From a virus (lineage: Duplodnaviria; Heunggongvirae; Uroviricota; Caudoviricetes): DNA of 64,000 nucleotides. Below are positions 10,149-24,821 of this stretch, in pieces; the stretch's first letter is position 1; each line of letters opens with the position of its first letter. The stretch covers positions 1 to 64,000 of the IMG/VR virus record IMGVR_UViG_3300002835_000066, one strand, 5' to 3'. The notes under the pieces are model-generated. The model was given only the letters and a program-made list of their open reading frames with translations, was not told the origin of the DNA and ran no database searches. Both the position numbers and the translations under genes were made by a program.

Positions 10149-10155
10149 AATGAAT

Positions 10156-10529: not shown

Positions 10530-10604
10530 TGGTAGCCCGAACGGGTTCCGACCCCGCTTCTCTGCCTTGAAAGGGCAGTGTCCTAGCCACTAGACGACCG
10601 GGCC
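10530..10604 (-). tRNA. tRNA-Glu (anticodon TTC)
   Basis: GGCCCGGTCGTCTAGTGGCTAGGACACTGCCCTTTCAAGGCAG...GTCGGAACCCGTTCGGGCTACCA. The T-loop has G54 (GTCGGAA). Confidence 0.75.
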
Positions 10605-10610
10605 ATATTT

Positions 10611-10686
10611 TGGTGGAGCCTACGGGGATTGAACCCGTGACCTTCTGTCTGCCAGACAGATGCTCTCCCAGCTGAGCTAAAGCCCC
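10611..10686 (-). tRNA. tRNA-Ala (anticodon GGC)
   Basis: GGGGCTTTAGCTCAGCTGGGAGAGCATCTGTCTGGCAGACAGA...GGTTCAATCCCCGTAGGCTCCACCA. G3-U70 and A73 Ala identity elements. Confidence 0.8.
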
Positions 10687-10695
10687 AAAATTTTA

Positions 10696-12054
10696 TTATT
10701 TGTATAGCCAACCAAGCTCAGGAAACGTCTTCATGAAATCGGTTCCTCTGACTCTATCCATATTAGAATATTCTCGCATATGCTTCAAATGGTCTTCTGT
10801 AGGTTGAACAAAAAATTCCATATCCTGCTGATTCATTTTTCGCAGTTCTTTTATTTTGTTGATTCCTTCGTTGAGCATTTCAGTTTTTACTACATAATAC
10901 TCTGTGTTAGCAATAATAGTATCGCAATACCAAACTTGAAACTCGTCCAATGATAGTTCAACCATTTCCCAATGTTCTTGTGGCATGTTAATAATACTAA
11001 GATGATTTGGATTTCTTAACAAATTACAAAATAGGAAATATTCAAAAATTGCGTTTTTGTCCTGTGCCATAGAAAACTGATACGCTTGCTTATCTATAAT
11101 TTCTTGCATCATTTCTTTCAAGCGATGAACATTGAGAGAACTTATCACCGGCGAATATACTAGCAGGTGAGTCATTTCATCCTCGTTGCGTAGTTGCTCA
11201 AATGACTCTTGAATCTTCTTAAGATTTTCTGATATAGTTTCCCAATCACCGGGCCAGCGTATGTAATTGAATCTGTCGTGTACTTCGTCTACGCTTGCTA
11301 TTACAACAACAGACTTAAACTGTTTCCAGTAGTCTAGTATATGTTTATCTTTATAGCGAAGTGTGCTGCAATTAGAGGAGTATCTTAATTCTACCTCTTT
11401 ACATCTGTTATTTTCTATTAGTCTATCAAGCGTGTACCAGTGATATTCTGATAACAGTGGCTCGCCGCCTGCAAAGTATATAGTTTCAACACTTTCTATA
11501 TTATCATCTATCAACTTATATGCTAGAGTTTTATCCTGTGGCTCAATAAATTTTGTTCCTACAATCGGATAACCTAACTTGTTCATCAAATCAAACCAAC
11601 TAGAACTTAAATCATGATTGCAAGTAATACATGCTTGATTGCATTTATTAGTGAACCTAAAATCAAGATATTTTAGTTTATTAGTTTTCAACTCTCCTGA
11701 CGGGAGAAGTTTATCCATGTACTCATCATAGTTTTTAGAATAGTTTGCATTGGCTATTGTTCTAGCACTAGACTTACTGAACTTTTCTGTGTCATAACAA
11801 AAAGAACAAGCGGGATTTTTCTCCCCTTGAACCATATTCTTTCTAAATTCTTTATACCGTTCTCCGTTCCACACTGAGTTCCAGTCAGAAACTTCATTGA
11901 TGTTTCCTAAAGATTCTTTTGACATATCGCCTACACAACAGGGCATAACATTGCCGTTCGGGGAGACATAAGTGTGTAGAAGACCTAACATACAGAATGT
12001 TGGATTAGAATTTAAATTATGCTCTTTAGTCATACACGAGTATTTATTCAGCAT
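10696..12054 (-). CDS. radical SAM enzyme with an N-terminal SPASM/twitch-like Cys-rich domain (domain order reversed)
   Basis: Start placed at the internal Met (MLNKYSC..., cat at 12052-12054), because the longer ORF overlaps two tRNA-Pro genes. Residues 20-90 read CMLG...NGNVMPCC...GN...W...NPACSFC, a SPASM/twitch-like pattern. The radical-SAM CxxxCxxC box FTNKCNQACITCN follows. A GGEP-like FAGGEPLL SAM-binding motif is also present. Confidence 0.6.
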   Translation of the reverse strand: MLNKYSCMTKEHNLNSNPTFCMLGLLHTYVSPNGNVMPCCVGDMSKESLGNINEVSDWNSVWNGERYKEFRKNMVQGEKNPACSFCYDTEKFSKSSARTIANANYSKNYDEYMDKLLPSGELKTNKLKYLDFRFTNKCNQACITCNHDLSSSWFDLMNKLGYPIVGTKFIEPQDKTLAYKLIDDNIESVETIYFAGGEPLLSEYHWYTLDRLIENNRCKEVELRYSSNCSTLRYKDKHILDYWKQFKSVVVIASVDEVHDRFNYIRWPGDWETISENLKKIQESFEQLRNEDEMTHLLVYSPVISSLNVHRLKEMMQEIIDKQAYQFSMAQDKNAIFEYFLFCNLLRNPNHLSIINMPQEHWEMVELSLDEFQVWYCDTIIANTEYYVVKTEMLNEGINKIKELRKMNQQDMEFFVQPTEDHLKHMREYSNMDRVRGTDFMKTFPELGWLYK

Positions 12055-12073
12055 ATGAGGGTACTCTATAAAC

Positions 12074-12152
12074 TGGTCGGGAATGTAGGATTCGAACCTA
12101 CGATCTCCTGGCCCCAAACCAGGCGGATTAAACCAGACTTTCCTAATTCCCG
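12074..12152 (-). tRNA. tRNA-Pro (anticodon TGG), second copy with a divergent D-arm
   Basis: CGGGAATTAGGAAAGTCTGGTTTAATCCGCCTGGTTTGGGGCCAGGAGATCGTAGGTTCGAATCCTACATTCCCGACCA. Acceptor and T arm are identical to the copy at 2655-2731. Confidence 0.6.
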
Positions 12153-12158
12153 TTGAAT

Positions 12159-12235
12159 TGGTCGGGGTAGCCGGATTTGAACCGACGACCACTTGTCCCC
12201 CAGACAAGTGCGCTACCAGGCTGCGCTATACCCCG
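12159..12235 (-). tRNA. tRNA-Pro (anticodon GGG)
   Basis: CGGGGTATAGCGCAGCCTGGTAGCGCACTTGTCTGGGGGACAAG...GGTTCAAATCCGGCTACCCCGACCA. Confidence 0.85.
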
Positions 12236-12242
12236 TTGGGTT

Positions 12243-12330
12243 TGGTGGAGTCGGTGAGATTCGAACTCACGGTACCTTTCGGTACGCTACCTTTCCAAGA
12301 TAGTCTAATCGGCCACTCTAGCACGACTCC
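12243..12330 (-). tRNA. tRNA-Ser (anticodon GGA). Type II.
   Basis: GGAGTCGTGCTAGAGTGGCCGATTAGACTATCTTGGAAAGGTAG, long variable arm, GTGAGTTCGAATCTCACCGACTCCACCA. Confidence 0.8.
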
Positions 12331-12468
12331 TTGAAATGGCGCGCCCGCTTTTTTTCTATACTGGGGCTACTTTCGGAAGGTAGTCCATGTATGCGGACGC
12401 ATAAGATTGGAGGGCAGCGGTAACGGTTGTTCGTCACTATTGCAGTGGGTATCACTCGCCGCCATAAG

Positions 12469-12660
12469 TTAAAGTCCGAGAAAATGCATTACTAGCTTGA
12501 AGGGCCAGACATGTTCCCAGAGAAAGTGTTCTAATGGATAGCTGATAGTTACGCCAATCCAAAATCTATAATCAGTAATCAAATTTGAACACGAATTCAT
12601 ACACCGAACTAACAGTCCGGTCTTCTTATCTTCGTGATAATGTGGTTCATGTTCTTTCAT
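12469..12660 (-). CDS. possible small ORF (63 aa, His-rich N-terminus MKEHEPHYHEDKK) in the 400-bp gap inside the tRNA array
   Basis: The ORF-track entry 12469..12855 overlaps tRNA genes. Only the part below 12729 can be coding. No motif support. Confidence 0.2.
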   Translation of the reverse strand: MKEHEPHYHEDKKTGLLVRCMNSCSNLITDYRFWIGVTISYPLEHFLWEHVWPFKLVMHFLGL

Positions 12661-12728
12661 ACAATGTCTATCTCTTTGTGCATATACTAGTATACTATAT
12701 ATCAAGCAGCTTGTCAACCTAGTAATAA

Positions 12729-12803
12729 TGGTACACCCTACTGGGTTTGAACCAGTGACCTTTTCCATGTCAAGGAAATGCTCTACCGCTGAGCTAAGGG
12801 TGC
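12729..12803 (-). tRNA. tRNA-Val (anticodon GAC)
   Basis: GCACCCTTAGCTCAGCGGTAGAGCATTTCCTTGACATGGAAA...GGTTCAAACCCAGTAGGGTGTACCA. Confidence 0.85.
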
Positions 12804-12810
12804 ATGAAAC

Positions 12811-12888
12811 TGGGGTGAAAGACGGGACTCGAACCCGCGACATTCGGTACCACAAACCGACGCTCTAACCAACTGAGCTACAATCACC
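12811..12888 (-). tRNA. tRNA-His (anticodon GTG) with an encoded G-1 opposite C73
   Basis: G-GTGATTGTAGCTCAGTTGGTTAGAGCGTCGGTTTGTGGTACCGA...GGTTCGAGTCCCGTCTTTCACCCCA. The extra 5' G and C73 are the His hallmark. Two U-U mismatches in the acceptor stem. Confidence 0.75.
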
Positions 12889-12894
12889 ATAAAC

Positions 12895-12968
12895 TGGCAT
12901 ACGCTGTAGGAGTCGAACCCACGCTAACTGGGTTGGAACCAGTCGTGCTACCGTAACACTTAGCGTAC
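12895..12968 (-). tRNA. tRNA-Trp (anticodon CCA), second and divergent copy
   Basis: GTACGCTAAGTGTTACGGTAGCACGACTGGTTCCAACCCAGT...GGTTCGACTCCTACAGCGTATGCCA. G73. Confidence 0.6.
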
Positions 12969-12975
12969 ATGAAAT

Positions 12976-13052
12976 TGGTGCCCGCGGAAGGATTCGAACC
13001 TCCGACCCTCAGATTCGTAATCTGATGCTCTATCCAGCTGAGCTACGCGGGC
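12976..13052 (-). tRNA. tRNA-Arg (anticodon ACG)
   Basis: GCCCGCGTAGCTCAGCTGGATAGAGCATCAGATTACGAATCTGA...GGTTCGAATCCTCCGCGGGCACCA. Confidence 0.85.
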
Positions 13053-13059
13053 ATTAACT

Positions 13060-13136
13060 TGGTGGACCCTGAGGGATTCGAACCCCCGACATTCTGTTTC
13101 GAAGACAGACGCTCTATCCAGCTGAACTAAGGGTCC
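13060..13136 (-). tRNA. tRNA-Arg (anticodon TCG)
   Basis: GGACCCTTAGTTCAGCTGGATAGAGCGTCTGTCTTCGAAACAGA...GGTTCGAATCCCTCAGGGTCCACCA. Confidence 0.8.
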
Positions 13137-13149
13137 GATAAATAATAGC

Positions 13150-14235
13150 ATGAATATTTACTACGTAGACTTAATCCCGTATTTTAACCTCTATCATGAA
13201 TTTACAATTCCTAAAGGCATTGAAAGGGTGAAAGCATTAATCAGTGACAAAGATAACAAAATAATACTATCTGCGGTATGGGAAATATGGCCGCATGAAA
13301 AAATCCTAACTGCACTAGAAATACTAGGAGTTACTCCTAATCAAGACAATGTTGTGCTACTGTTAGATGTTTATAGTTACAGCGAACCCAATCATTGGAC
13401 CACTGTAAATACCGTATTATATGATTCTTTGCTGTGTAGAGTACATAAATCAGAGAATCCTGAGTTTGGTCCTAATCTAGACAATGACAAAATATTGTTT
13501 AAAATAGGAACTCCTTATAAAAAACAACGAATATTTACATTATACGATTTGTACCAGCGAAATGAACTCGCTAAGTGCGAATGGTCATTGCATTACGGGT
13601 CTCATCTAGAAGATGCAGTGCGTTGTTATTTGCCTAATATGTCTGATGATGCGTATCAAAGATTTATAACCGATACTGTTAGAAAAATTGATGATGTCTC
13701 ACCAAACTTTGGAACGGGCACTACTAATTTTTATCCAATTGCGTTTAGCCCTACAGCCGAAATGTATGCTAAAACGGCTGTTAGTTTAGTTACTGAAACT
13801 ACATTTCATCCTGAGTATTACTGGTTTATCACAGAAAAAACTTGGAAAACAATTAATAATTTTCATCCCTTCGTGCTAATAGGCTACAAAAAAACGTATG
13901 AATATTTGCATTCCTTAGGATTTGATACCTTTCAGTATGCAGTAAAACATCCATATGAAACATTAGTAGGACCAGAAGAAGATGTAATTAGAATGTGCGT
14001 TGACAATGTGTTGCATTTATTAAGCAACAAAGATCTGCATAGAGACAAACTCACTAAATCCGTGATTAACAATAAAAAAGTATTTACTGATTTAGCAGAC
14101 ACGTATAACAACAAAGTAAACCCATACATAGAAGATTTGATTTGGAATCACTCACTTCAAAAAGTGAGTGATGACCATTCTGTAGAAGTTTATGAAAAAC
14201 TTTGGGGCAAGTATGGTGCTGTTGGAGAGGATTGA
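13150..14235 (+). CDS. hypothetical protein (plus strand, 361 aa)
   Basis: Long ORF convergent with the tRNA array. No motif I recognise. Confidence 0.45.
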   Translation: MNIYYVDLIPYFNLYHEFTIPKGIERVKALISDKDNKIILSAVWEIWPHEKILTALEILGVTPNQDNVVLLLDVYSYSEPNHWTTVNTVLYDSLLCRVHKSENPEFGPNLDNDKILFKIGTPYKKQRIFTLYDLYQRNELAKCEWSLHYGSHLEDAVRCYLPNMSDDAYQRFITDTVRKIDDVSPNFGTGTTNFYPIAFSPTAEMYAKTAVSLVTETTFHPEYYWFITEKTWKTINNFHPFVLIGYKKTYEYLHSLGFDTFQYAVKHPYETLVGPEEDVIRMCVDNVLHLLSNKDLHRDKLTKSVINNKKVFTDLADTYNNKVNPYIEDLIWNHSLQKVSDDHSVEVYEKLWGKYGAVGED

Positions 14236-14289
14236 ACTCTCGACCTCTTCATTACCAATGAAGTGCTACTACCACTGAGCTACAACAGC
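14217..14289 (-). tRNA. tRNA-Thr (anticodon GGT). CCA not encoded.
   Basis: GCTGTTGTAGCTCAGTGGTAGTAGCACTTCATTGGTAATGAAG...GAGAGTTCAATCCTCTCCAACAGCA. Confidence 0.7.
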
Positions 14290-14295
14290 GTCATG

Positions 14296-15051
14296 CTATT
14301 TATTAGAAATATTTGACCAAATATATTTGGCTAAAAATTCATTAAAGTCTTTACCGCTATGCACTAGATCTCTTGCTAGTTCACTGCATGAAGTGTTGGC
14401 ACGTAGTACAGATATTTGATCAGGAATAGCATATAAGTTTACTCCGTGCTTAGTAGTCAATTGTCGTAACATAATTTCTAACAGTAGAAACTTTGTATTA
14501 TTGTATCCGAATGTGTCGGATAAAATCATAAAATCACGTAAATCATTATTGTCTTTTGCAGACCACGGCCCTTCAAATGATATCGTTTTATTTTGGGATA
14601 TCAATGGAAATCTAGACATTCCTGTTTGTTGAAATACAATTGTTTTTGGAGGATTGAAATTAGTAAGTAACCAAACTAGGTTTAAAAAGCTAACTTCGTT
14701 AGAGGAACCTCCTAATCCCATATTGTAGACGGGAATTCCTGCTAAATTTTCAAGATGACAAGAATACGTATCTTCATGATGAATCCCAGTACCCATAGTA
14801 TGTGAACAGCCTATTGTCACGATATAGGGGGCGTGTTGAATAACATCTAAAGAATGATGATTTCTGAAACCATAATTGTCAGACTTATATGTAAGCTGAA
14901 CTAGCGAATCGTAGTATTTCCAAGATTCACCTAATCTTGCTCGATTGGTGAAAAACTTTTCTTTGGAATCACTGCCATAAAAGTGAAAAGTAGTGTTCTC
15001 TACTAGAGCAATTCTATTGCCATAAAAAATAGGAAAAGTATGTTGTAACAT
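14296..15051 (-). CDS. SGNH/GDSL-like hydrolase family protein, paralog 3
   Basis: 251 aa. TIGCSHTMGTG in the block I position and GLGGSSNEVS in the block III position. Confidence 0.35.
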   Translation of the reverse strand: MLQHTFPIFYGNRIALVENTTFHFYGSDSKEKFFTNRARLGESWKYYDSLVQLTYKSDNYGFRNHHSLDVIQHAPYIVTIGCSHTMGTGIHHEDTYSCHLENLAGIPVYNMGLGGSSNEVSFLNLVWLLTNFNPPKTIVFQQTGMSRFPLISQNKTISFEGPWSAKDNNDLRDFMILSDTFGYNNTKFLLLEIMLRQLTTKHGVNLYAIPDQISVLRANTSCSELARDLVHSGKDFNEFLAKYIWSNISNK

Positions 15052-15071
15052 GCAAGCAGCCTTACTCTCTT

Positions 15072-15145
15072 TGGATGCCCCACGAGGACTCGAACCTCGA
15101 TTGACGGAGTCAAAGTCCGCTCTCTTACCATTAGAGGATGGGGCA
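15072..15145 (-). tRNA. tRNA-Gln (anticodon TTG)
   Basis: TGCCCCATCCTCTAATGGTAAGAGAGCGGACTTTGACTCCGT...GGTTCGAGTCCTCGTGGGGCATCCA. U1-A72 is typical of Gln. Confidence 0.8.
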
Positions 15146-15196
15146 GCATCAATATACGTGTATTATATATGCTCTATAGAGCAATGTCAAATATTT

Positions 15197-15272
15197 TGGA
15201 TGCCCGACTAGGGCTCGAACCTAGAACCTACTGAGTCAGAGTCAGTCGATCTACCAATTGATCTATCGGGCA
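15197..15272 (-). tRNA. tRNA-Gln (anticodon CTG)
   Basis: TGCCCGATAGATCAATTGGTAGATCGACTGACTCTGACTCAGT...GGTTCGAGCCCTAGTCGGGCATCCA. Confidence 0.8.
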
Positions 15273-15544
15273 ATATATCATTCATTATTAGAGGACACTC
15301 AAAGGTGCCAGTCGGTTTACAAAGCCGGTGCATTTTTTAACAGTGAATGTTCTCAAATAATGAATGGTTAGCCTTTTGTTGATAAGCGATCTATGTTTCC
15401 TGGCATTTCAGGATTGACCGCTTGAGAGGATCGTAATGTCCTCATCTGATAGTTTTTTCATCACCGCAAAGTGAATCCATCATTACCACCGCCCGTTCAT
15501 TTTTTATAGTGCTTTGCAGCCTCGTTCCGACTTGCACTTCTAAA

Positions 15545-15578
15545 TGGAAAACCCCAAGAACTTGAGTTCCCGGGGTCT
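15545..15578 (-). terminator. putative intrinsic terminator (imperfect GC-rich hairpin, then a U-run on the minus-strand transcript)
   Basis: Minus-strand sense ccccgggaactcaagttcttgggg followed by ttttccattt. Lies just 3' of the small ORF 15608-15748. Confidence 0.4.
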
Positions 15579-15607
15579 AAATAAACTAGTTTAACTATGT
15601 CTACTTA

Positions 15608-15748
15608 TCCGCCGGGCTCTTGTTCCACTGATGGTGTAAAGTCGCCGCGATTGCTTGTAATATATACTGCCGCAACTGCACCCATCGGAGCCAATAATTG
15701 TCCCCAGAGTATATGCTGTTTCAGCGATATGTTACAAGTAGTATTCAT
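15608..15748 (-). CDS. possible 47-aa membrane peptide (MNTTCNISLKQHILWGQLLAPMGAVAAVYITSNRGDFTPSVEQEPGG)
   Basis: Hand-translated. Below the ORF-track size cut-off. Has a hydrophobic core. Sits between an orphan copy of the promoter-leader motif and a terminator-like hairpin. Confidence 0.25.
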
Positions 15749-15902
15749 AGTAAGTTTATTTAGTCCTGGTTAATAATAGTGCATTTTAACGGGTAGTTTT
15801 TCAACTTTTCGTCAAATCTGCATTACATATACTCTTATATATCATTTCAAAACTGTTGTCAAGAAAAAAATGACCTTAGTCAGAAATTAATTTCTGAACG
15901 AG

Positions 15903-15933
15903 CTCCGTTTTCTCAGCTTATAATTAACTATAG
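15903..15933 (-). promoter_or_regulatory. conserved promoter/5'-leader motif, copy 1 of 3. An orphan copy with no adjacent start codon.
   Basis: Plus strand ctccgttttctcagcttataattaactatag. Near-identical blocks lie at 27613-27640 and 28549-28581, each directly abutting a minus-strand ATG. Confidence 0.45.
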
Positions 15934-15980
15934 CACCGTTAGCTTTCTATGTCAACCCCTAATTCACCTCTAAATAGAAG

Positions 15981-16541
15981 ATGAATTACGATTCCTTCTC
16001 TCACGGTCAAATCCAAAGCAAAGTCTGGCTTTGCAAAGAACTTGAACGCTTTGTCCATGCTAACATCAAGATTGCTATCTTAGGTAGCTGGTACAACGTG
16101 CTTTCATTTATGCTTCTAACACGAAACGCGGATAGATATCAATACATTTTGGGCGTAGACATTGACCCGGAGACAAAAGAGATTGCTGACAAGCTTACCG
16201 AAGCATGGCGAATCGGTAAGGATTATAAGGTTGAGAACATTATAGCGGACGCAAATGGTGTAAATTTAGCAGGCTACGACCTTGTAATCAACTGCTCACC
16301 GGAGCATATGAAGGGCAATGATTGGTTTGAGAATCTTGAGTACGGCACTATGGTGTGTATTCAATCAAGTGACGTACAGACAGCGGACGATGATGTTTGG
16401 AAGTGTGTCAACTCTAATGAGTCGTTGGAAGACCTGACACTAAAATACCCGTTATCAAAGTATCTTTACTCCGGGGAGAAGGAGATTAGATATAGCGATG
16501 ATAACGGGTATACGAGATTTATGCTAATCGGTATTAAATAA
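15981..16541 (+). CDS. possible class I SAM-dependent methyltransferase-like protein
   Basis: 186 aa. A Rossmann-like motif I region (IAILGSWYNVLSFMLL ... GVDIDPE), an acidic residue after beta-2, and DLVINCSP. Weak call. Confidence 0.3.
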   Translation: MNYDSFSHGQIQSKVWLCKELERFVHANIKIAILGSWYNVLSFMLLTRNADRYQYILGVDIDPETKEIADKLTEAWRIGKDYKVENIIADANGVNLAGYDLVINCSPEHMKGNDWFENLEYGTMVCIQSSDVQTADDDVWKCVNSNESLEDLTLKYPLSKYLYSGEKEIRYSDDNGYTRFMLIGIK

Positions 16542-16995
16542 GGCACTTACCAATAGCAGGGATTAAACCTGCTATCTTAGCAATATCCACAAGTTGTTCA
16601 TTGGTGTAACCAAACTCTATCAACCCACTCCTAATAACCTCAATACTAAGTTCATCTTTGAGAATCATAGAAACAGCTAAGGCATAGGGAGTAATCTTGA
16701 GGTCAGTGATTAAGAGGTCTCCGCTGATATTGCTAAAAGTCATATCTATTACAGCCGCAGCCACTTCTTCGCGGATATCATTTCCTCTAAGCTCATCGCT
16801 CATTGAAATTTCAAGAGCCAATTCACCGTATCCTACTGCTAAAGAAGCAGCAAGGGCACAAGAATGTGCTTCTACAGTAGAAAGACTAGTATCTTTCATA
16901 ACAGATTCAAGTCTGTTTACCAACTGCGATGCATAGTCAGGCAAGCTGATGGTTACAGTAGTAACCCAATTGCTAGGTTGTACTAGTGAATTCAT
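16534..16995 (-). CDS. hypothetical protein (153 aa, Ala/Leu-rich helical)
   Basis: ORF with a 4-nt start/stop overlap with the downstream gene. Confidence 0.45.
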   Translation of the reverse strand: MNSLVQPSNWVTTVTISLPDYASQLVNRLESVMKDTSLSTVEAHSCALAASLAVGYGELALEISMSDELRGNDIREEVAAAVIDMTFSNISGDLLITDLKITPYALAVSMILKDELSIEVIRSGLIEFGYTNEQLVDIAKIAGLIPAIGKCLI

Positions 16996-17408
16996 AATTT
17001 TGCTTTCTTTACAATTTCTTTATAGCCCTTCCAGCTAGGGTGAACCCCATCTGGCTGAACGTGTTTGGTACCAATGACTTGATCACCGTATTCATTAGCC
17101 AACTTAGTGACGATTACATTGATATTTGATTTGCAGAACTTTGGATTGCAAGGGGGCATAACCCATATTACTCGGTTTGAGCGAACTCGTTCCCGCATCT
17201 TGCGAAGTTCCTTTTCAGTCTTAACACCTTTATGGTCATTGGTACCAAGACTAATTACAACTATTTCAGAATTCAATGGAGTGTTACCCCACTTCTTATT
17301 CCACTGCCATGTGTTATAACCACCCTTGGAATACGATACGCATTCCTTAGGTGCAAACATCTTAGTACCTACTGCGATACTATCGCCTAAAATTAAACAT
17401 TCTAACAT
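16992..17408 (-). CDS. small SGNH hydrolase (GDSL esterase/lipase-like)
   Basis: 138 aa. LILGDSIAVG (block I GDS), ISLGTNDH (block III GxND), DGVHPS (block V DxxH). Confidence 0.6.
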   Translation of the reverse strand: MLECLILGDSIAVGTKMFAPKECVSYSKGGYNTWQWNKKWGNTPLNSEIVVISLGTNDHKGVKTEKELRKMRERVRSNRVIWVMPPCNPKFCKSNINVIVTKLANEYGDQVIGTKHVQPDGVHPSWKGYKEIVKKAKL

Positions 17409-18109
17409 TATCTATACTCCTTTTTTAAAATTTCAAATGTCTCTTCCCAAGTTGAAACATTATAATACTTAGTTGCATGTTGGGCAATGGTATAATCATT
17501 TCCACCGGGGTATATCTTATCTCCAAAGAATACAAAGGGAGATATATGTTCTGCTATCTGACTCTTATCTTTTCCTACAGGATGAATATCTATTCCTGTT
17601 TCGCCCGCGACTGTAGCCTCTAGCATTGGGAAATTTTCGCGGATAAGGAATGCGTAAAAATTTCGTTCATCTACACGAGTATCGTATTCCAAATATTCAG
17701 AACGTTCATTCATGTCTGCGTTGCGTCCAATAATACTGAAATTACAAGAACCGGGGCGCATTTCAATATGGTTACCCGTCCGCTTTGGGAAGGAACTCAA
17801 CTGCAATAGGCTTTCAAGATATTCATGTTGTTCGATAGTCAATGCAAAGTCGTTGACATACTGTAGTTCTCCGCTCACATAGAGAGCGTTTCCGCAGCAG
17901 CTATAGACACCTTTGACAGTATTACATATCTCTTCGCCAAGCTGCTCTAGCGTCTTCTCGTAGTCGCTTCCGGACACAAGATAGACATTATTAGTTTGGC
18001 AGAATGAAAGGAACCATTCCTCAAACGATGGAGCGATACGCTGTCTACTAGGAGTCAGCGTACCGTCTACATCAAATGCGAAATTAAAGAGCGAGGTGGC
18101 TGTAGTCAA
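17408..18109 (-). CDS. phosphomannomutase, eukaryotic PMM type (HAD superfamily)
   Basis: 233 aa. FAFDVDGTLTPSRQ matches the PMM N-terminus LFDVDGTLTPAR. VSGSDYEK..EQLG, KRTGNHIEMRPGSCNFSIIGR and the C-terminal FFGDKIYPGGNDY all align with human PMM2 as I remember it. Confidence 0.7.
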   Translation of the reverse strand: MTTATSLFNFAFDVDGTLTPSRQRIAPSFEEWFLSFCQTNNVYLVSGSDYEKTLEQLGEEICNTVKGVYSCCGNALYVSGELQYVNDFALTIEQHEYLESLLQLSSFPKRTGNHIEMRPGSCNFSIIGRNADMNERSEYLEYDTRVDERNFYAFLIRENFPMLEATVAGETGIDIHPVGKDKSQIAEHISPFVFFGDKIYPGGNDYTIAQHATKYYNVSTWEETFEILKKEYR

Positions 18110-19145
18110 ACAGTGCCTTCTCTTTCGCTCGTGTAAGGATCAGTCGGGCACCCTTGCTTTCAAAGATGAACTTACCTTCCTGACTGTTCAGATTGATAAG
18201 ATGCTCAGGGGCAAAACGAAGGTCAACCCAATCAGAGTCATCATCATTTGGATCAGGATCATATTCAATGTTGACACCCTTCATAGCTAGCGGGTTGCCG
18301 CGCCAAATTTCAGGACTAACAGACTTGATTTCCTTACCACCATCAACCAACTTAATCTCGTACTTAGCACCCTCATCGTATTCAGGCTTAGCGTTGAGCA
18401 TTTCAAGTGCTTCGGTCGGAGTCTCGTCGTAGCGATTCATTTCTTCAACAAGTGCCTTAAGCATATCAAAGTTGAACTCACCGAACAAACTAGTCAATGA
18501 ACAAATTTGGTCAATGTATTGCTTGTTAACGAGGTTGTCTTCACAGTATTCACGAATGAACACCTGATCCAAACCCTTGAAGTCTAGCAGATAGAAGATA
18601 CGACCAGGACGATTACGCATGTGCGAGTCAACACGCCACTTGTCATTCACTGTCAAGATGTAAAGCTTCTTTGAACCGAACACACCATCAAGCAGTGTGA
18701 GGATTTCTTCCTGCTTCTCGTGGTCATAGACCTTTTCAAATTCATCAAAGAGAACGACACACGGCTGGTCAATGTCCTGTAACAGCTTGAAGAAACCATC
18801 GCCAGTCCAATCACGATTGATTACGATAGTAGGAACGCCCTCCTTCGCAAGTTCAACGCTGATGTTCTTAGCAAGCAAAGTCTTACCCGAACCCTTTTCA
18901 CCGTTCAACAGAACACCAGTCTGTTGCGGGCGCTTCCAAAACGAGTTGATAATGCGGTCAGTATGACGCAGGGTATTACCATACATCTTAGATGGGATTT
19001 CAAAATCATCGATAGATTCAAGATAGAGGTTACCCATCGGGTCTACAGCAACGGTGTAGTTGCCTGCAGGAAGCTTCTCGTGTAGGTCCATTGCTTCCTT
19101 GCTGGAAACACGAAAGCTAGTACCGTTCTTCAAAAAATATGCCAT
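18084..19145 (-). CDS. AAA+/P-loop ATPase
   Basis: 353 aa. Walker A LNGEKGSGKT. Walker B VVLFDEFEK. Confidence 0.6.
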   Translation of the reverse strand: MAYFLKNGTSFRVSSKEAMDLHEKLPAGNYTVAVDPMGNLYLESIDDFEIPSKMYGNTLRHTDRIINSFWKRPQQTGVLLNGEKGSGKTLLAKNISVELAKEGVPTIVINRDWTGDGFFKLLQDIDQPCVVLFDEFEKVYDHEKQEEILTLLDGVFGSKKLYILTVNDKWRVDSHMRNRPGRIFYLLDFKGLDQVFIREYCEDNLVNKQYIDQICSLTSLFGEFNFDMLKALVEEMNRYDETPTEALEMLNAKPEYDEGAKYEIKLVDGGKEIKSVSPEIWRGNPLAMKGVNIEYDPDPNDDDSDWVDLRFAPEHLINLNSQEGKFIFESKGARLILTRAKEKALFDYSHLAL

Positions 19146-19156
19146 TACTATATTCC

Positions 19157-19357
19157 TTAATTAGAAAAAACTGCGGCAGCAACTACTACCAATATTACGG
19201 CAATTGCTTGCCACTTAACTCTTGAAAACATCATTTGAGTTTGCTGTGTGCGAGATTCAGTTGTTTGTTCTTGTGAAAACGCGGTAAGTCCGCGCAGTAA
19301 TGCAAACAGAGTAAATCCAACCGCAATAGCAATCAGAAAAATAAGTAGAAACATCAT
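19157..19357 (-). CDS. small membrane protein (two predicted TM helices)
   Basis: 66 aa. MMFLLIFLIAIAVGFTLFALL...AIAVILVVVAAAVF. Confidence 0.4.
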   Translation of the reverse strand: MMFLLIFLIAIAVGFTLFALLRGLTAFSQEQTTESRTQQTQMMFSRVKWQAIAVILVVVAAAVFSN

Positions 19358-19433
19358 TTACGGAACAATCCTACTATTACTAATAGGCATACGATAAGTC
19401 CTGCATATCCCAGTAAACCAATCATCGTATCAT

Positions 19434-19631
19434 TCATTCATCATTTCCTTTACACCATCGTTCCGCTTTTTTATATGCGGTACTTAGTCTTTTATATCGT
19501 TTACTTTCACCGACAGTTTTCATGGTGTAAGCATAACGAACAAAGTATCCTTGGTCATCTTCACACACCGTAGCACCTTTTCTGATGCCATATTGTGCCC
19601 AAACAGACCTTAATACGTTCATCTTACTCAT
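19434..19631 (-). CDS. hypothetical small basic protein
   Basis: Start trimmed to the internal Met (MSKMNVLRS...) to avoid a 50-nt overlap with the upstream gene. Confidence 0.35.
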   Translation of the reverse strand: MSKMNVLRSVWAQYGIRKGATVCEDDQGYFVRYAYTMKTVGESKRYKRLSTAYKKAERWCKGNDE

Positions 19632-19926
19632 GCTCTCCGGTCGCACTACGACCCCATCCTGACTTACGCACAAACAATTCTGGTTTTACTGTTGCAGTAG
19701 TGTATGTCGCAACCGTTAAGGCTGCTGCACCGATAAGGACAGCATGAGCGATTAGATTCACTCCCATAAGCGCATATGTACCGGTCGCAATAGAGAAGGC
19801 GATAGCCCACATCCAACCCAAAACTTGATATACCATATGCCTAATATTGCCTTCGGGTATATGTCGCAATGGACTTTTGTTGTAGTCAAAGATAAAATTC
19901 CAACTATGATATATTGCATTTTTCAT
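19624..19926 (-). CDS. membrane protein (2 TM)
   Basis: 100 aa with two hydrophobic helices (WMWAIAFSIATGTYALMGVNLIAHAVLIGAAALTVATY). Confidence 0.4.
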   Translation of the reverse strand: MKNAIYHSWNFIFDYNKSPLRHIPEGNIRHMVYQVLGWMWAIAFSIATGTYALMGVNLIAHAVLIGAAALTVATYTTATVKPELFVRKSGWGRSATGEHE

Positions 19927-19936
19927 TAGTGTATCC

Positions 19937-20260
19937 TCAAAATTTCAAAAGGTTAAATGCGAGAAGAATATCCCGCTTATCTTCATCAATGGGGTGAACT
20001 GCGATTGCAGTCATTTCACCACCATTCAAATCGGGTTCGCTGAAATGTTCATACTTAATCCCGAACTCAAACAGAATCTTTTCAACCGCAACAAGTGCCT
20101 CAAGATTCCTAACTCCGACGCAGGTAAAATATGTATTATCTGCATCAGCATCTTTACCCAACGCGGACCCTAACTTGTACGCAACGTGTGCAGTCTGCAC
20201 AAGCTGATACTCCTTAAAGATATCTTGACGGGTGAAAAAATATGCGTATCGTTTTGTCAT
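19937..20260 (-). CDS. peptidyl-tRNA hydrolase PTH2-like protein
   Basis: 107 aa. QLVQTAHVAYKLG resembles the PTH2 active-site region (Q..HA). The C-terminal block NGGEMTAIAVHP resembles the PTH2 motif TVTVLAIGP. Moderate. Confidence 0.4.
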   Translation of the reverse strand: MTKRYAYFFTRQDIFKEYQLVQTAHVAYKLGSALGKDADADNTYFTCVGVRNLEALVAVEKILFEFGIKYEHFSEPDLNGGEMTAIAVHPIDEDKRDILLAFNLLKF

Positions 20261-20291
20261 AGTCTTCTTATAGCAAACTATGAATCAGATG

Positions 20292-20525
20292 TCAACCTCT
20301 TTTTACGTTATGAATCGCCGTTGTAAGATTATTGATGTCAGTAGTAGTGCGACGAAACTGCCTGCTATTAAGTTGCAGGGCGGAAGCCATTTTGTGAAGT
20401 TGTTCCTTCAATTGACGAACCTCGTCCTCAAGGTTTTTGATTCTCTTTTTATCGTCTTTTTCAGGTATAGTGGTTGGATTGTCTTCTGTGATTATAATCG
20501 GTTTATTAGTATACATCTTTTTCAT
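20292..20525 (-). CDS. small coiled-coil protein
   Basis: 77 aa, heptad-rich (KNLEDEVRQLKEQLHKMASALQ). Preferred over the overlapping plus-strand ORF 20280..20543 because of operon orientation. Confidence 0.35.
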   Translation of the reverse strand: MKKMYTNKPIIITEDNPTTIPEKDDKKRIKNLEDEVRQLKEQLHKMASALQLNSRQFRRTTTDINNLTTAIHNVKRG

Positions 20526-22422
20526 TTGTTCTCTCTATCGTAATTTGTGTATTGCTTCGTCCTAATTTTTTACCGATGATTAATCGCATGAATAATATTT
20601 CTGGATCGGTGTCTATTATAGGCTCATGAAGATATTCTATATTTAGTAAGGAAGAGCCAGTCACTTCATTGTTCATCGCACTCTCATATATGCCATATGG
20701 GTCAGGTATACTGTATGGATATGTTTTTTTAGGTGAGTACATAAGTGCAGATTGTATGTCAAAAAGTGAGTCATGAATATCTTTGGGAAGCCCGGTATAT
20801 TCAATATCAAATATATTTCGGAGTTCTTCTATAATTGTCTCATGATTTAAGTAAAAATTTGATAGGCTCGCTAGAGGAATAGCGTAAGACTTGTTAATTA
20901 AATCTTGGTGTTCCTGTTTGTATTCCGCGTTGCTTAAGAATGCTGCAAAAAATGACTTCACTCTATGATATTCAGTTGAAAGATAACCGTCACCATTAAT
21001 TAAACAATTTTCCAATTTACTAATAATTTGGCTGAGTGGCATGATATTATTATTTGTTAAATAAAATATTATGATTTTGGCCCAGCCAGTGCTGTGGAAC
21101 ATACTTATAATATAGGTGAACATGTAGCTTTCGACTAGATCATCGAACGGCATAGTATTAGTTGCGCATACTATCTCTTCCTTTTCTATAATTTCATTAT
21201 CAACTGCAAGTCCGTTTGGCGAAGGTCTATTTACGGTTACAGTCTTTATTCCATGTATCTTCTTTTGCATAGAATTGTTAATCTCTGAGTTTTCTAAAAC
21301 TGTTAGTAAATGCGCTTGGTTTCCACTAAATTCAGCATCCAAACTTAATATCTTATAATAAGTATCTTTCCAAGACTCTTTAGTTTCTCCGGGGAGACCC
21401 AGTATAAGTTCAACTATAGGAATAAGTCCTATTTTGTTACATTCTTTTGCTACGTTTTCTATATCATTGAGTTGAAAATTAGAACGTCTAATATCTACTA
21501 GCGTTTGTTCATTCATGGATTGTAACGAAATTATTAAACCGTTAACCTCAGTGCCCTTATAGAATTCTTTAATTATATCAAGAGTTTCTTTCTTCTTAAA
21601 TGACTTAGCCCAAGTAACATATACGGTGCCTGGTTGACCAGTAAGATTTTGAGTTTTGCGTAAGTATTTTGTTATCCGCATGTCTCGTTCTACTAGTATG
21701 CCAAAGTTTGCATCCGATAAAAATACGTAGGGTATATTATGTTTGCTAAGCCAATCAATATCACTAAACACCCGTTCTTCACTAAAGCACTTAACTTTAC
21801 TTTGTGTTAGTGAACCCCAATCACAGAACGTGCATCCATACGGACAGCCCCTATTAGTTTCTAACGTGGCGCTCCATTCAACATTGGGATTTTCTCTTAT
21901 TAGTCTTTCAAAGATACCAGACGCATACGGGCTTGGGCTTACTAGCTCTTTCATTCTAGGAAATTTTATAACTTTATCAGGTGCACCATTGTCGTGAACA
22001 GTTAGTAGCATTTGAAGGAAAGCCTCTTCTCCTTCCCCAATTATGACTGAATCCACATACGGGTGGGTTTCAAAAAATGACTTTCTTTCTGGGTCCTCTG
22101 GTATCTGCGGTCCTCCGAAAAGAATCAAACATTCTGGATACTGTTCTTTTATCGCTTTGGCTACAACTTTCGTATATTCCCAATTCCATGTATAGCAACT
22201 AAATGCTGCTATTTTAGGATTGTCCATTCTTTCAATAACTTGGGCAACAGGTATTCTACTAAAAAAGATGTCAGCTAAATTGTAATTATTTTTGACTACA
22301 TCATTTTGTTCAGCATGACTCCAAAGTACTGCGACAGCATATGGTAGCCAACAAGTTATTTTACCATTTGGCAACGCCGAAGAATAATTTGGCTGAAATA
22401 GGTAGACATTTTTCACTAACAT
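20506..22422 (-). CDS. B12-binding-domain radical SAM enzyme (class B radical SAM family)
   Basis: 638 aa. N-terminal Rossmann-like cobalamin-binding region. ETNRGCPYGCTFCDW is CxxxCxxC. Confidence 0.7.
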   Translation of the reverse strand: MLVKNVYLFQPNYSSALPNGKITCWLPYAVAVLWSHAEQNDVVKNNYNLADIFFSRIPVAQVIERMDNPKIAAFSCYTWNWEYTKVVAKAIKEQYPECLILFGGPQIPEDPERKSFFETHPYVDSVIIGEGEEAFLQMLLTVHDNGAPDKVIKFPRMKELVSPSPYASGIFERLIRENPNVEWSATLETNRGCPYGCTFCDWGSLTQSKVKCFSEERVFSDIDWLSKHNIPYVFLSDANFGILVERDMRITKYLRKTQNLTGQPGTVYVTWAKSFKKKETLDIIKEFYKGTEVNGLIISLQSMNEQTLVDIRRSNFQLNDIENVAKECNKIGLIPIVELILGLPGETKESWKDTYYKILSLDAEFSGNQAHLLTVLENSEINNSMQKKIHGIKTVTVNRPSPNGLAVDNEIIEKEEIVCATNTMPFDDLVESYMFTYIISMFHSTGWAKIIIFYLTNNNIMPLSQIISKLENCLINGDGYLSTEYHRVKSFFAAFLSNAEYKQEHQDLINKSYAIPLASLSNFYLNHETIIEELRNIFDIEYTGLPKDIHDSLFDIQSALMYSPKKTYPYSIPDPYGIYESAMNNEVTGSSLLNIEYLHEPIIDTDPEILFMRLIIGKKLGRSNTQITIERTNEKDVY

Positions 22423-22464: not shown

Positions 22465-23358
22465 TCACCGCTTCAAAGATGTCTTATACTTTATATATTC
22501 GGCAATATGCTCTGCTACATTTATTCCGCAGTATTTTTCAAATCCTTCAAAGCCGGGGGCAGAGTTAGCCTCGCATATCTTGTATCCATCTTTGTCAAAC
22601 AATAAGTCAATACCCGCAATTTCTAATCCACAGATTCTCGCTGTTTCTCTTGCGAGATATTCAATTTCACCATTAACTTCAAACGGCTCGCCATATCCAC
22701 CGTTAGATATGTTTGCTCTGAAATCTCCGGGCGGAGCTATTCTTTTCATTGCACCGATAACTTTACCACCGATGACTAATACACGCAAATCTTCGCCTGG
22801 CTTTTCACCGATATATTCTTGAACTAACAATGTCTTTGGCGTATTGAGATTACCGATGAACTCCATCATCTTTTTAAATGCAGTTTTATTCTCACACAGA
22901 TAGATGCCTTCACCATAGCTACCACTGATAATTTTAACAACACAGGGCCAGCCAATAAGATTGTCTGCAATATCTACATCTACGGGAAATCTAACAAGCA
23001 TTGTATTAGGTACTGGCATTCCTTTACTAGCTAGTAGCTGATGGCTACGCATTTTATCTTTTGCAATTTCTACGCCCACAGAAGAATTAATACATTTGAT
23101 ATGTTCTTCTTCAAACTGTCTAACGATAGCAGTGATGAACTCTGTGGTGCCTGAGCCTGTGCGGGCTAATACGATATCAGGCATGTCAAACTCTTGTCCA
23201 TTGTATTTGACACCATGACCAGTACCTTTTCCCACAACAACATCAAAGTTATCTGGGTGGTAAATGGTTGCAGGGATGCCTAAGTCACGAAGACTTTCTA
23301 CGAGCCGACGATTTTCGTATTCGTCCTCGTCTTTTTTAGACAATATTAGTATTGACAT
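22465..23358 (-). CDS. ATP-grasp ligase, RimK family (alpha-L-glutamate ligase-like)
   Basis: 297 aa. Overall RimK architecture (GWPCVVK...GSYGEGIYL ... LLVQEYI ... DLRVLVIGGKV ... GIDLLFDKDGYKICEANSAPGF). Confidence 0.75.
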   Translation of the reverse strand: MSILILSKKDEDEYENRRLVESLRDLGIPATIYHPDNFDVVVGKGTGHGVKYNGQEFDMPDIVLARTGSGTTEFITAIVRQFEEEHIKCINSSVGVEIAKDKMRSHQLLASKGMPVPNTMLVRFPVDVDIADNLIGWPCVVKIISGSYGEGIYLCENKTAFKKMMEFIGNLNTPKTLLVQEYIGEKPGEDLRVLVIGGKVIGAMKRIAPPGDFRANISNGGYGEPFEVNGEIEYLARETARICGLEIAGIDLLFDKDGYKICEANSAPGFEGFEKYCGINVAEHIAEYIKYKTSLKR

Positions 23359-23360
23359 TC

Positions 23361-23392
23361 GTTAATCCGTTTATAGTATTTATCGGATTAAC
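23361..23392 (-). promoter_or_regulatory. 9-bp stem / 14-nt loop hairpin ending 3 nt upstream of the ATP-grasp start codon, where it would occlude the ribosome-binding region
   Basis: gttaatccg ... cggattaac inverted repeat. The ATG (cat) is at 23356-23358. Confidence 0.4.
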
Positions 23393-23426
23393 ATACATAT
23401 AAAGAAACGGGGACTTGCCCCGTTTC
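23390..23426 (-). terminator. intrinsic terminator after the peroxiredoxin gene
   Basis: Plus-strand gaaacgggg-acttg-ccccgtttc hairpin. The minus-strand transcript continues UUUAUAUGUAUGUU. Confidence 0.55.
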
Positions 23427-23428
23427 CC

Positions 23429-23968
23429 TTAATTAGAACCCTGCAAGTATGCAAGGATTGTTTCAGGCGAAGTTTCGCCATACGGATCAGTTTCGCAGTT
23501 ATGCTCAATGCCATCTTCAATGAACCACTGTTCAATCTTGCCATTATCAACAATAACAGCATAGCGCCATGAACGAACTCCGAAGCCAACATTGTCCTTC
23601 TGAACAAGCATGTTCATCTGTGAAGTGAACACACCAGAACCGTCTGGAATAACCTTAACGTTCTGAATGTTCTGATCCTTAGCCCAGCAATTCATGACAA
23701 ATGCATCATTCACTGACATGCAGTAGATTTCATCGATGCCCAAAGCCTTAAACTGGTCAAAGTTCTGCTCAAAGCCCGGAAGCTGATAAGTTGAGCAAGT
23801 TGGGGTAAAAGCGCCCGGAAGCGAAAATAGGATTACTCGCTTACCAGCGAAATAATCATATGAAGTTACGTCCTGCCAACGATATGGATTCGGGCCTTCG
23901 ATGGAGTCATCACGGACACGAGTCTTAAAAGTTACAGCAGGAACAACTGTGGGTAATTGTTCAATCAT
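23429..23968 (-). CDS. peroxiredoxin (Prx5/glutaredoxin-dependent type)
   Basis: 179 aa. PGAFTPTCS peroxidatic-Cys motif and overall AhpC/TSA fold pattern. Confidence 0.8.
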   Translation of the reverse strand: MIEQLPTVVPAVTFKTRVRDDSIEGPNPYRWQDVTSYDYFAGKRVILFSLPGAFTPTCSTYQLPGFEQNFDQFKALGIDEIYCMSVNDAFVMNCWAKDQNIQNVKVIPDGSGVFTSQMNMLVQKDNVGFGVRSWRYAVIVDNGKIEQWFIEDGIEHNCETDPYGETSPETILAYLQGSN

Positions 23969-24023
23969 TAGTTTCTCCTAAAAAAATATTGGGTAGGAGC
24001 ACTATACCCCTACCCAATTATAC

Positions 24024-24821
24024 TTACTTTACGTTAACGATACCCTTGAAGTCGTAAGGGACGATGATCGTATTGACCTTGCCTTCCTTAACAGCTTCGG
24101 CAATCGTCACAAGAGCAGTTGCTTCCATGTACTTAGTAGCGCCTGCGTTAGCATTAAGAGCAGCAATACGCTCGGCTTCAAGCTTTGCAGTACGAACTTC
24201 TACCTGCTTCTGCTTTTCAGCATTTTGTGCCTCGACCAAAAGGTTAGCTGATGCTACGATATTCGCAGCAGGCTTAACCTGACGAACAAGAACCTGTGAG
24301 ATTGAAATTGCACCATCTAGCTTTTCAGCAGCGAGGCTAGCAACGATTTCAGCACGAATAAGCTGTTCAATTTCAGCACGGTTGTCAGCCATCTTCAACG
24401 ACTCGTAACGACGAGCAACCTTGTATGCAGCGTTACGACCAAGCTGACGAATGTAGTTATACATCAACAGAGTGTCGCCGTCTTCAGTTTCGGCGTGAAA
24501 TCCGCGATTCTTTTCAATATAGATTTCAGCAGCACTTGTTGGATTGATTGAATAGATAACTGCCATATCAAAGTCGGCAACAGTTGAGTTATCGCTAGCG
24601 AGAGGGGTCAAGTCAGCGATATCAACCTGAACATCCTTAGTCGGGAAAGTAAGAACTTCACCGATCAGAGTCTGGTTGATTGAACCAGGTTGAAGTTCAG
24701 TAGTTTGAATTTGCTTATCAAAGCCGCGACGAACGCCGACTTCACCCGTTTCAATACGAGTACAAGCAGCAGTCGTGGCCATCAAACCAGCGAGAACGGC
24801 AATCTTAGCAATACGATTCAT
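24024..24821 (-). CDS. SPFH/band-7 domain lipoprotein (HflC/prohibitin-like)
   Basis: 265 aa. Lipobox LMATTAAC. An SPFH-like core followed by an Ala/Glu-rich coiled-coil (AEKQKQVEVRTAKLEAERIAALNANAG). Confidence 0.5.
   Translation of the reverse strand: MNRIAKIAVLAGLMATTAACTRIETGEVGVRRGFDKQIQTTELQPGSINQTLIGEVLTFPTKDVQVDIADLTPLASDNSTVADFDMAVIYSINPTSAAEIYIEKNRGFHAETEDGDTLLMYNYIRQLGRNAAYKVARRYESLKMADNRAEIEQLIRAEIVASLAAEKLDGAISISQVLVRQVKPAANIVASANLLVEAQNAEKQKQVEVRTAKLEAERIAALNANAGATKYMEATALVTIAEAVKEGKVNTIIVPYDFKGIVNVK

Follow-up and report, generated by a model that had tools for sequence, protein, structure and literature searches.

The 64,000-nucleotide stretch analysed here, called the window in its full length, covers positions 1 to 64,000 of the IMG/VR virus record IMGVR_UViG_3300002835_000066 (Caudoviricetes) and carries a gene whose 233-amino-acid product belongs to the phosphomannomutase (PMM) family. 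We consider it probable that this protein is a functional HAD-IIB mutase of the PMM/alpha-phosphoglucomutase (alpha-PGM) branch, which would interconvert hexose-6-phosphate and hexose-1-phosphate and feed nucleotide-sugar synthesis, and that the gene is no recent eukaryotic import. The initial annotation of this DNA had described a eukaryotic-type PMM in a phage and read it as horizontal transfer from a eukaryote, or from a lineage that already acquired one. The assignment to a PMM-type HAD-IIB family stands, whereas the transfer from a eukaryote finds no support in the analyses below. The gene and its putative ribosome-binding site are as follows.

17408..18109, minus strand: PMM-family (PF03332, HAD-IIB) sugar-phosphate mutase gene, intact open reading frame (ORF), 233 amino acids, TTG start
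18116..18126, minus strand: Shine-Dalgarno-like purine-rich stretch GAAAGAGAAGG, read from the sequence, ending about 6 nt upstream of the PMM TTG

The ORF spans exactly 17408-18109, and TTG is the sole in-frame start that retains the catalytic aspartates, including Asp13. Homologues from metagenomes that are 95% and 88% identical are equally long, and GAAAGAGAAGG falls inside the AAA ATPase gene that lies upstream, at its 3' end. The dN/dS ratios against close relatives are 0.15-0.19; the PMM gene is therefore under purifying selection and maintained by it.

The similarity of the window protein to the PMM family far exceeds what chance would produce. Pfam PF03332 ("Eukaryotic phosphomannomutase") is matched over profile positions 10-217 of 221 with E = 8.4e-26 and 91.6 bits, four times the gathering threshold of 22.4. 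In a phmmer search against PDB sequences, human PMM2 (2amy) is matched over residues 11-227 (E = 1.4e-27, 99.9 bits) and, with it included, 15 eukaryotic PMM sequences are matched at E = 1e-27 to 8e-20, followed by the alpha-phosphoglucomutase of L. lactis (APGM; 4bnd) at E = 7e-13 and 51.8 bits. The motifs quoted in the initial annotation are all present in slightly different form, namely AFDVDGTLTP, SGSDYEKTLEQLG, KRTGNHIEMRPGSCNFSIIGR and FFGDKIYPGGND. An AlphaFold2 model built from a 34-sequence alignment (mean pLDDT 95.7) predicts a Rossmann-like core with an alpha/beta C2B cap, as in eukaryotic PMMs. When the PDB was searched with Foldseek, ranks 1-22 were eukaryotic PMMs (TM 0.67-0.87, 28-31% identity), the best TM scores (0.86-0.87) belonging to mouse PMM2 and the T. 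cruzi and T. brucei PMMs, and ranks 23-24 were APGM (E = 1e-18). The next families, IMP nucleotidase and trehalose-6-phosphate phosphatase, appeared at E about 1e-11 (no lower than 3e-11). A PMM-type enzyme at this position is thus borne out by the family profile, the PMM2 match and the structural comparison, and the protein has the HAD motifs I-IV, the cap site and the fold of PF03332 members in addition to a score above the family threshold.

In PMM2, the catalytic Mg2+ has Asp12 and Asp14 as its ligands, Arg21, Gly208 and Asn216 are grouped as catalytic, and Arg123 and Arg141 are involved in activator binding (PMC12042452). To place these residues, we mapped PMM2 onto a 168-sequence alignment in which the clade of the window protein has 160 members. 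All of them (D12, D14, R21, R123, R141, G208 and N216) are kept in the window protein, and they are identical in 133-159 of the 160 clade members, the lowest count being at R21 (133/160). HAD motif I reads D13-V-D15-G-T17, where D13 and D15 correspond to PMM2 D12 and D14; the motif I Asp is found in 157 clade members and the remaining 3 are truncated. Motif II has S48 (PMM2 S47), motif III K182 (K189), and motif IV D197, N204 and D205 (D209, N216 and D217). The phosphate-site residues of the cap are R118, N123, R129 and R136 (R123, N128, R134 and R141), the core residue R22 corresponds to R21, and D174 to D181. At the other motif and cap positions (S47, N128, R134, D181, K189, D209 and D217), the same residue occurs in 150-160 of the 160 members. 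Eukaryotic PMMs (human PMM2/PMM1, yeast Sec53, kinetoplastid and fungal enzymes; PF03332) are like the window protein in fold (HAD core plus C2B cap) and length class, and all their catalytic and activator-binding residues are common to it. The Arg/Asn site of the cap, where PMM2 holds the second phosphate of hexose-1,6-bisphosphate, be it activator or intermediate, is intact.

With such an active site, Asp13 would be phosphorylated by a hexose-1,6-bisphosphate, and the enzyme would then pass the phosphate to hexose-6-phosphate or hexose-1-phosphate. The bisphosphate intermediate would reorient between core and cap, so that sugar-6-phosphate and sugar-1-phosphate are interconverted. The likeliest substrate pair would be mannose-6-phosphate/mannose-1-phosphate, possibly with glucose phosphates as well. 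The gene may serve the phage as an auxiliary metabolic gene, by which more sugar-1-phosphate would become available during infection for making nucleotide sugars, with the product passing into glycans that glycosyltransferases of phage or host build or modify.

To see how far the gene extends beyond this window, we searched for homologs in phage, metagenomic and cellular collections. The window protein is a member of PHROG 29277, a family of "unknown function" that it matches at E = 6.3e-64 and 216.6 bits over profile positions 13-243 of 248. A tblastn search of 50,697 GenBank phage records found homologs at 43-45% identity in the Synechococcus phages S-SSM7 (SSSM7_237) and S-SSM6a and in the Prochlorococcus phage P-TIM68 (gp126), all labelled "hypothetical protein". 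Like the window, these come from large marine or aquatic myovirus-like genomes rich in auxiliary genes. Megablast of positions 16000-20500 against the same records gave no match, hence the phage is without a close cultured relative. In a collection of 5.8 billion proteins, more than 4220 match at E ≤ 1e-5, some of them named "phosphomannomutase" by JGI, and a library of representatives at 50% identity has 1674 clusters at E ≤ 1e-3 and 212 at E ≤ 1e-30. A pattern scan found relatives on at least 555 IMG/VR viral contigs. That the gene lies in a phage, as the initial annotation held, agrees with the PHROG virion/fibre-like proteins, ribonucleotide reductase genes and 28 tRNA genes of the window, and with its nearest relatives being IMG/VR viral contigs.

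The pattern scan of one genome per GTDB species returned at least 18 loci, a number that is a lower bound and no measure of rarity in bacteria. The clade occurs in cellular contexts in Alphaproteobacteria, Fidelibacterota and Promethearchaeota metagenome-assembled genomes (MAGs), often beside ManC. The homolog lies between a Na/Ala symporter and a polyprenyl synthase on a Fidelibacterota chromosome, between an M24 peptidase and PrmA on a 544-kb Rhizobiaceae contig, and directly after a bifunctional ManC/PMI and beside a sigma-54 response regulator on a 156-kb Hyphomicrobiales contig; ManC adjoins it on Rickettsiaceae and Promethearchaeota contigs. Some GTDB loci resemble mis-binned phage (e.g. 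L006 and L008). Among the 18 GTDB loci listed, L022 (Actinotignum urinale) is a confirmed ortholog of L. lactis APGM, and L021 and L023, which are 26-28% identical to the window protein, do not cluster with APGM in neighbor-joining (NJ) trees. On two short contigs assigned by binning to Promethearchaeota (Asgard archaea; L007:3884-5675, of 9 kb, and L009:3089-4945, of 5 kb), the PMM-family gene is divergent from an adjoining ManC-type guanylyltransferase, and that of L007 is also beside a CysQ/APS-kinase fusion.

No paper on a HAD-type PMM in a phage was found in the literature searched (phosphomannomutase together with phage, cyanophage or auxiliary metabolic genes); a "phosphomannomutase" is listed for phage SP-15, in a different context. 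The family itself is already in public phage genomes and automated JGI annotations. An intact active site and a well-supported biochemical family can now be assigned to PHROG 29277, and with it to genes called "hypothetical" in the cultured cyanophages and to those of uncultured aquatic phages in their hundreds, and HAD-type PMMs emerge as a widespread phage auxiliary gene, mostly tied to nucleotide-sugar genes.

This tie is evident from the neighbors of the homologs. The genes within 4 kb of the homolog were clustered for 80 IMG/VR loci, with the following recurrent neighbors.

39 of 80 loci: 136-amino-acid cytidylyltransferase-fold enzyme, immediately upstream (best match rfaE domain II, E = 7e-25, below cut-off)
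23 of 80 loci: SDR epimerase/dehydratase
15 of 80 loci: nucleoside-diphosphate (NDP)-sugar dehydrogenase
10 of 80 loci: cupin
6 of 80 loci: TET-associated glycosyltransferase (TAGT)

At least one of these five (the RfaE-II-like nucleotidyltransferase, SDR epimerase, NDP-sugar dehydrogenase, cupin or TAGT) is present in 56 of the 80 loci, and ManC adjoins the homolog in 8 of the 18 GTDB loci listed, including a bifunctional PMI/GMP in L015. Because of these nucleotide-sugar neighbors and the adjacency of ManC, the supply of sugar-1-phosphate is the best-supported role of the family. The bacterial enzymes ManB, AlgC and CpsG, which belong to the alpha-D-phosphohexomutase superfamily, act upstream of ManC and have an unrelated four-domain fold with a phosphoserine nucleophile. 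They presumably catalyze the same reaction (hexose-6-phosphate to hexose-1-phosphate via a bisphosphate) and have no sequence similarity to the window protein, being functional analogs only.

On the uncultured T4-like contigs of the 80 loci (e.g. L037:5412-5822, L090:6683-7459 and L096:5303-6100), the PMM homolog is located just downstream of a family-B DNA polymerase and is flanked by the RfaE-domain-II-like nucleotidyltransferase, SDR epimerase and NDP-sugar dehydrogenase. This cluster looks like a compact phage nucleotide-sugar cassette without ManC. A TAGT (PF20691) lies about 1.5 kb downstream of the homolog in L030, L031, L032, L033, L035 and L085 (e.g. L031:8028-8957), which hints at sugar supply for DNA hypermodification.

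For this particular phage the nucleotide-sugar role is argued by analogy with its relatives, and several observations weigh against it or against a close likeness to PMM2. In most uncultured viral relatives the gene adjoins one for an RfaE-II-like nucleotidyltransferase, an epimerase or a dehydrogenase, whereas phmmer searches with single representatives detected no nucleotidyltransferase, epimerase, NDP-sugar dehydrogenase, cupin, ManC, PMI or TAGT in the 64-kb window. Its only glycosyltransferase is a GT2 at 6625-7494, about 10 kb away, and the immediate neighbors (an AAA ATPase, an SGNH esterase and an AhpD-like protein) are no classical nucleotide-sugar genes. Since the partner nucleotidyltransferase in viruses has a cytidylyltransferase fold and is not ManC, the activated sugar may not be GDP-mannose. 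The choice among mannose, glucose and other sugar phosphates is likewise one that the sequence would not reveal, and the window protein has Thr-Gly at the position of PMM2 Ile178-Ser179. In addition, the dimer-interface residue Phe119 of eukaryotic PMMs is replaced by a nearly invariant His in the phage clade (His114 in the window protein; His in 145 of the 160 members), and the quaternary structure may therefore differ from that of PMM2.

A rival reading is a catabolic alpha-phosphoglucomutase, which would mainly turn glucose-1-phosphate, for example from host glycogen, into glucose-6-phosphate for glycolysis and the pentose-phosphate pathway and so provide energy, NADPH and nucleotides during infection. 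The family does include a bona fide bacterial alpha-PGM, the L. lactis enzyme matched above by both sequence and Foldseek, and mammalian PMMs are known to act on glucose phosphates too. No nucleotide-sugar gene is nearby in this phage lineage, and the gene is found among auxiliary genes of redox and nucleotide metabolism (peroxiredoxin, ribonucleotide reductase and MetK). We nevertheless regard this function as unlikely. L. lactis APGM is only 25-26% identical to the window protein, and its substitutions at the equivalents of PMM2 R21, S47, N128, R134 and D181 are absent from the phage clade; the window protein is PMM-type at all 5 positions and scores 51.8 bits to APGM versus 99.9 to PMM2. 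The clade profile fits PMMs about 1e-20-fold better than APGM, and the relatives are tied to anabolic nucleotide-sugar genes and ManC.

It is also conceivable, and in our judgment quite unlikely, that the phage branch opens a compact nucleotide-sugar pathway specific to phages, one that is not directed to mannose or GDP-mannose and provides a sugar for glycosylation of phage DNA or virions. Such a pathway would combine the HAD-type mutase with the RfaE-domain-II-like (cytidylyltransferase-fold) nucleotidyltransferase, the SDR epimerase and the NDP-sugar dehydrogenase to yield an activated sugar other than GDP-mannose, perhaps a heptose or uronic-acid derivative. The adjacent TAGTs in 6 loci point towards such glycosylation. 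In the lineage of the window, the mutase would then have recombined with the SGNH esterase and the AhpD-like protein into a different module.

A phosphatase in place of a mutase is improbable. Most HAD-IIB members are phosphatases, trehalose-6-phosphate phosphatases and IMP nucleotidases are the structural neighbors after the PMMs, and PMM1 itself provides a precedent in its IMP-stimulated glucose-1,6-bisphosphatase, so that a HAD-IIB sugar-phosphate or bisphosphate phosphatase has to be considered. The protein does show weaker matches to the generic Cof and HAD-SF-IIB models, but these are under the curated cut-offs (34 versus 41.8 bits and 25 versus 137 bits, respectively), whereas PF03332 is far above its own. 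The second phosphate site in the cap (R118, N123, R129 and R136), which a mutase needs, is conserved across the clade, and the linkage to sugar-1-phosphate nucleotidyltransferases is recurrent. A generic bacterial HAD phosphatase without PMM cap residues, the outcome named beforehand as fatal to the PMM assignment, is the opposite of what was found, as the equivalents of R123, N128, R134 and R141 are all kept. We thus continue to favor a mutase that supplies sugar-1-phosphate for nucleotide-sugar synthesis.

To examine the relation to eukaryotic PMMs, the clade profile was compared with those of animals, fungi, kinetoplastids and Plasmodium, which all fall in a narrow band of E = 1e-55 to 3e-44, versus 1e-27 for L. 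lactis APGM. By this measure PMM is the closer of the two to the clade, and no eukaryotic lineage is favored. NJ trees (Kimura distances, 100 bootstraps) were built with 7 eukaryotic sequences taken from PDB alignments (human PMM1 and PMM2, mouse PMM2, Candida, Aspergillus, T. brucei and T. cruzi) together with APGM, the GTDB loci, the cyanophage proteins and the representatives at 50% identity. The eukaryotes are monophyletic in 100 of 100 bootstraps, to the exclusion of the window protein and every phage or prokaryote sequence, and in 75-77 of 100 the window protein and the cyanophage proteins form a group from which eukaryotes and APGM are absent. These trees place the window protein neither within nor sister to a eukaryotic lineage. 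A grouping of eukaryotes with Promethearchaeota MAG sequences was seen in one NJ tree and rejected as unsupported (bootstrap 12-25%). Built by NJ with 7 eukaryotic sequences, the trees speak to these groupings and not to the deep branching order or to which way any ancient transfer went.

Pairwise identities and insertions point the same way. Eukaryotic PMMs share at least 48% identity with each other, and any eukaryote shares at most 42% with any non-eukaryote; the window protein is 30-34% identical to eukaryotic PMMs, and identity within the phage/prokaryote group is as low as 25%. Three eukaryotic insertions are missing from the window and cyanophage proteins, as they are from APGM: about 6 residues after the strand at 81-85 (PMM2 ~80-85, "QSHLGE"), 2 residues before GG(Q/E) (167-168, "GK") and 4-8 residues before FFGD (~198-201). 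The C-terminal V..W.ET..IL motif of the window protein resembles bacterial APGM, unlike eukaryotic PMMs, and the W.ET motif is common to APGM and the phage clade. L. lactis APGM (4BND) is itself a PF03332-type fold in a bacterium, hence the family is not confined to eukaryotes. From these comparisons, the window protein lies outside both the eukaryotic PMM clade and the APGM branch. An old, diverse prokaryote/phage family, with eukaryotic PMM as one tight branch within it, would account for the data at least as well as passage through a lineage that had already acquired the gene, and the gene was probably kept vertically and horizontally within a large phage/prokaryote clade, with no sign of recent eukaryotic import.

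A recent xenolog from a eukaryote, direct or via a eukaryote-derived donor, is extremely improbable: the Pfam name, the eukaryotic source of every experimentally solved close structure and the greater closeness of the clade to eukaryotic PMM than to bacterial APGM may suggest it, but the low identity to all sampled eukaryotes without a favored lineage, their complete monophyly, the missing insertions, a phage/prokaryote diversity exceeding that of eukaryotes, the homologs in bacterial and archaeal cellular contexts and the more than 150 non-eukaryotic clusters at 50% identity that outscore every eukaryotic PMM (137-340 bits for the best 150, versus ~100 for human PMM2) all stand against it. 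The weaker form of the claim, an older passage through a lineage that had already acquired such a gene, could still hold. The word "Eukaryotic" in the Pfam name, from which a eukaryotic origin is tempting to conclude, is no sign of one here. Among prokaryotes and viruses the PMM family is highly diverse and extends to MAG contigs of Asgard archaea that pair the gene with ManC; this diversity bears on the question of where the precursor pathway of eukaryotic N-glycosylation came from.

Within the window, the PMM gene is surrounded by the following genes.

18084..19145, minus strand: AAA+ ATPase gene (phrog_2376), 353 amino acids, 3' end overlapping the PMM start by 26 nt
16992..17408, minus strand: minimal SGNH/GDSL hydrolase gene, 138 amino acids, with all four SGNH blocks, including GDS, GTND and DGVHP
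16534..16995, minus strand: CMD/AhpD-like protein gene, 153 amino acids, weak match (Pfam CMD E = 0.009, NCBIfam ahpD E = 7e-4)
15981..16541, plus strand: convergent ORF, 186 amino acids, at the same position in the close relatives L001, L002, L003 and L025

The 26-nt overlap of the AAA and PMM genes is also found in the related 352-kb contig L001. The ATG of the SGNH gene overlaps the PMM stop (TAATG) and has AAGGAG 8 nt upstream, and the start of the AhpD-like gene overlaps the SGNH stop (ATGA). The L002 ortholog of the AhpD-like protein has a precomputed PF02627 hit. These arrangements suggest that PMM is co-translated in an operon of AAA ATPase, PMM, SGNH esterase and AhpD-like protein. 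The core of PMM, SGNH and AhpD-like genes is present in 5 of the 5 closest relatives (L001, L002, L003, L024 and L025, which include the 352-kb contig, ENA ERZ28594730 scaffold_6, and a 173-kb contig, ERZ28615044 scaffold_9) and was not found in the other 98 loci. The AAA gene is directly upstream of PMM only in L001 and 0.7-1.3 kb off in the other close relatives; in L002 and L025 a peroxiredoxin gene is directly upstream of PMM and the AhpD-like gene is two genes downstream. The genes downstream of the S-SSM7 homolog ("hemagglutinin" and "NAD synthetase") were considered as counterparts of the SGNH and AhpD-like genes and rejected for want of any similarity. Because S-SSM7 has no such counterpart, the linkage of PMM, SGNH and AhpD-like genes is confined to the five closest relatives.

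PADLOC gave no defence-system match for the PMM, SGNH, AhpD-like and 186-residue proteins, and only weak P-loop matches (E ≥ 1e-4) for the AAA ATPase. A promoter and terminator scan of 15200-20600 gave nothing above shuffled expectation. The AAA+ ATPase is 56% identical to the "AAA-ATPase" of Microbacterium phage Pumpernickel and is widespread in jumbo and other large phages of unrelated hosts (413 phage records).

The PMM operon is located in a region of the window rich in tRNA and metabolic genes. The 28 tRNA genes, all on the minus strand at 697-15272, have small ORFs and a gene for an HNH endonuclease between them; the set, unusually large for a phage, includes 4 Leu, 3 Arg, 3 Thr, 3 Pro, 2 Trp, 2 Gln, 2 Ala and 2 Val. 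One predicted tRNA-Ile(TAT) at 7497-7590 is 94 nt long, far over a normal class I tRNA, and could hold an intron or be a mis-call. Within the tRNA region, a Coq4-like protein (PF05019), the GT2 glycosyltransferase and a DUF481 protein, the last of an outer-membrane beta-barrel family, are encoded together at 5988-8260. The start of the GT2 ORF (6625-7494) overlaps the same-strand tRNA-Leu at 7407-7492, and that of a SPASM radical-SAM ORF (10696-12207) overlaps two same-strand tRNA-Pro genes (12074-12152 and 12159-12235); the true starts of both proteins are therefore probably further downstream.

This SPASM protein is one of three radical-SAM enzymes in 17 kb, the others being proteins of 638 and 534 amino acids with B12-binding domains (20506-22422 and 25502-27106), and none of the three has a PHROG match. 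A RimK-type ATP-grasp ligase, a peroxiredoxin (Redoxin/AhpC-TSA) and an SPFH/Band 7 protein are encoded in a row at 22465-24821. MetK, the S-adenosylmethionine (SAM) synthetase, is encoded at 28948-30093 and is about 50% identical to bacterial and phage MetK. A class II aldolase at 35029-35649, beside the ribonucleotide reductase genes, has the methylthioribulose-1-phosphate dehydratase MtnB as its best match, and SpeD is found in related contigs. MetK, the MtnB-like aldolase and the SpeD of relatives suggest a gene set for SAM and methionine salvage. Further along, a run of paralogous virion/fibre-like proteins (phrog_8510, 2295, 24074 and 30390) occupies 38582-63596, several of them with Laminin_G_3/ConA-like domains and including ORFs of 3191 (48647-58222) and 1219 amino acids. 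The GC content reaches 0.47 at 40-44 kb.

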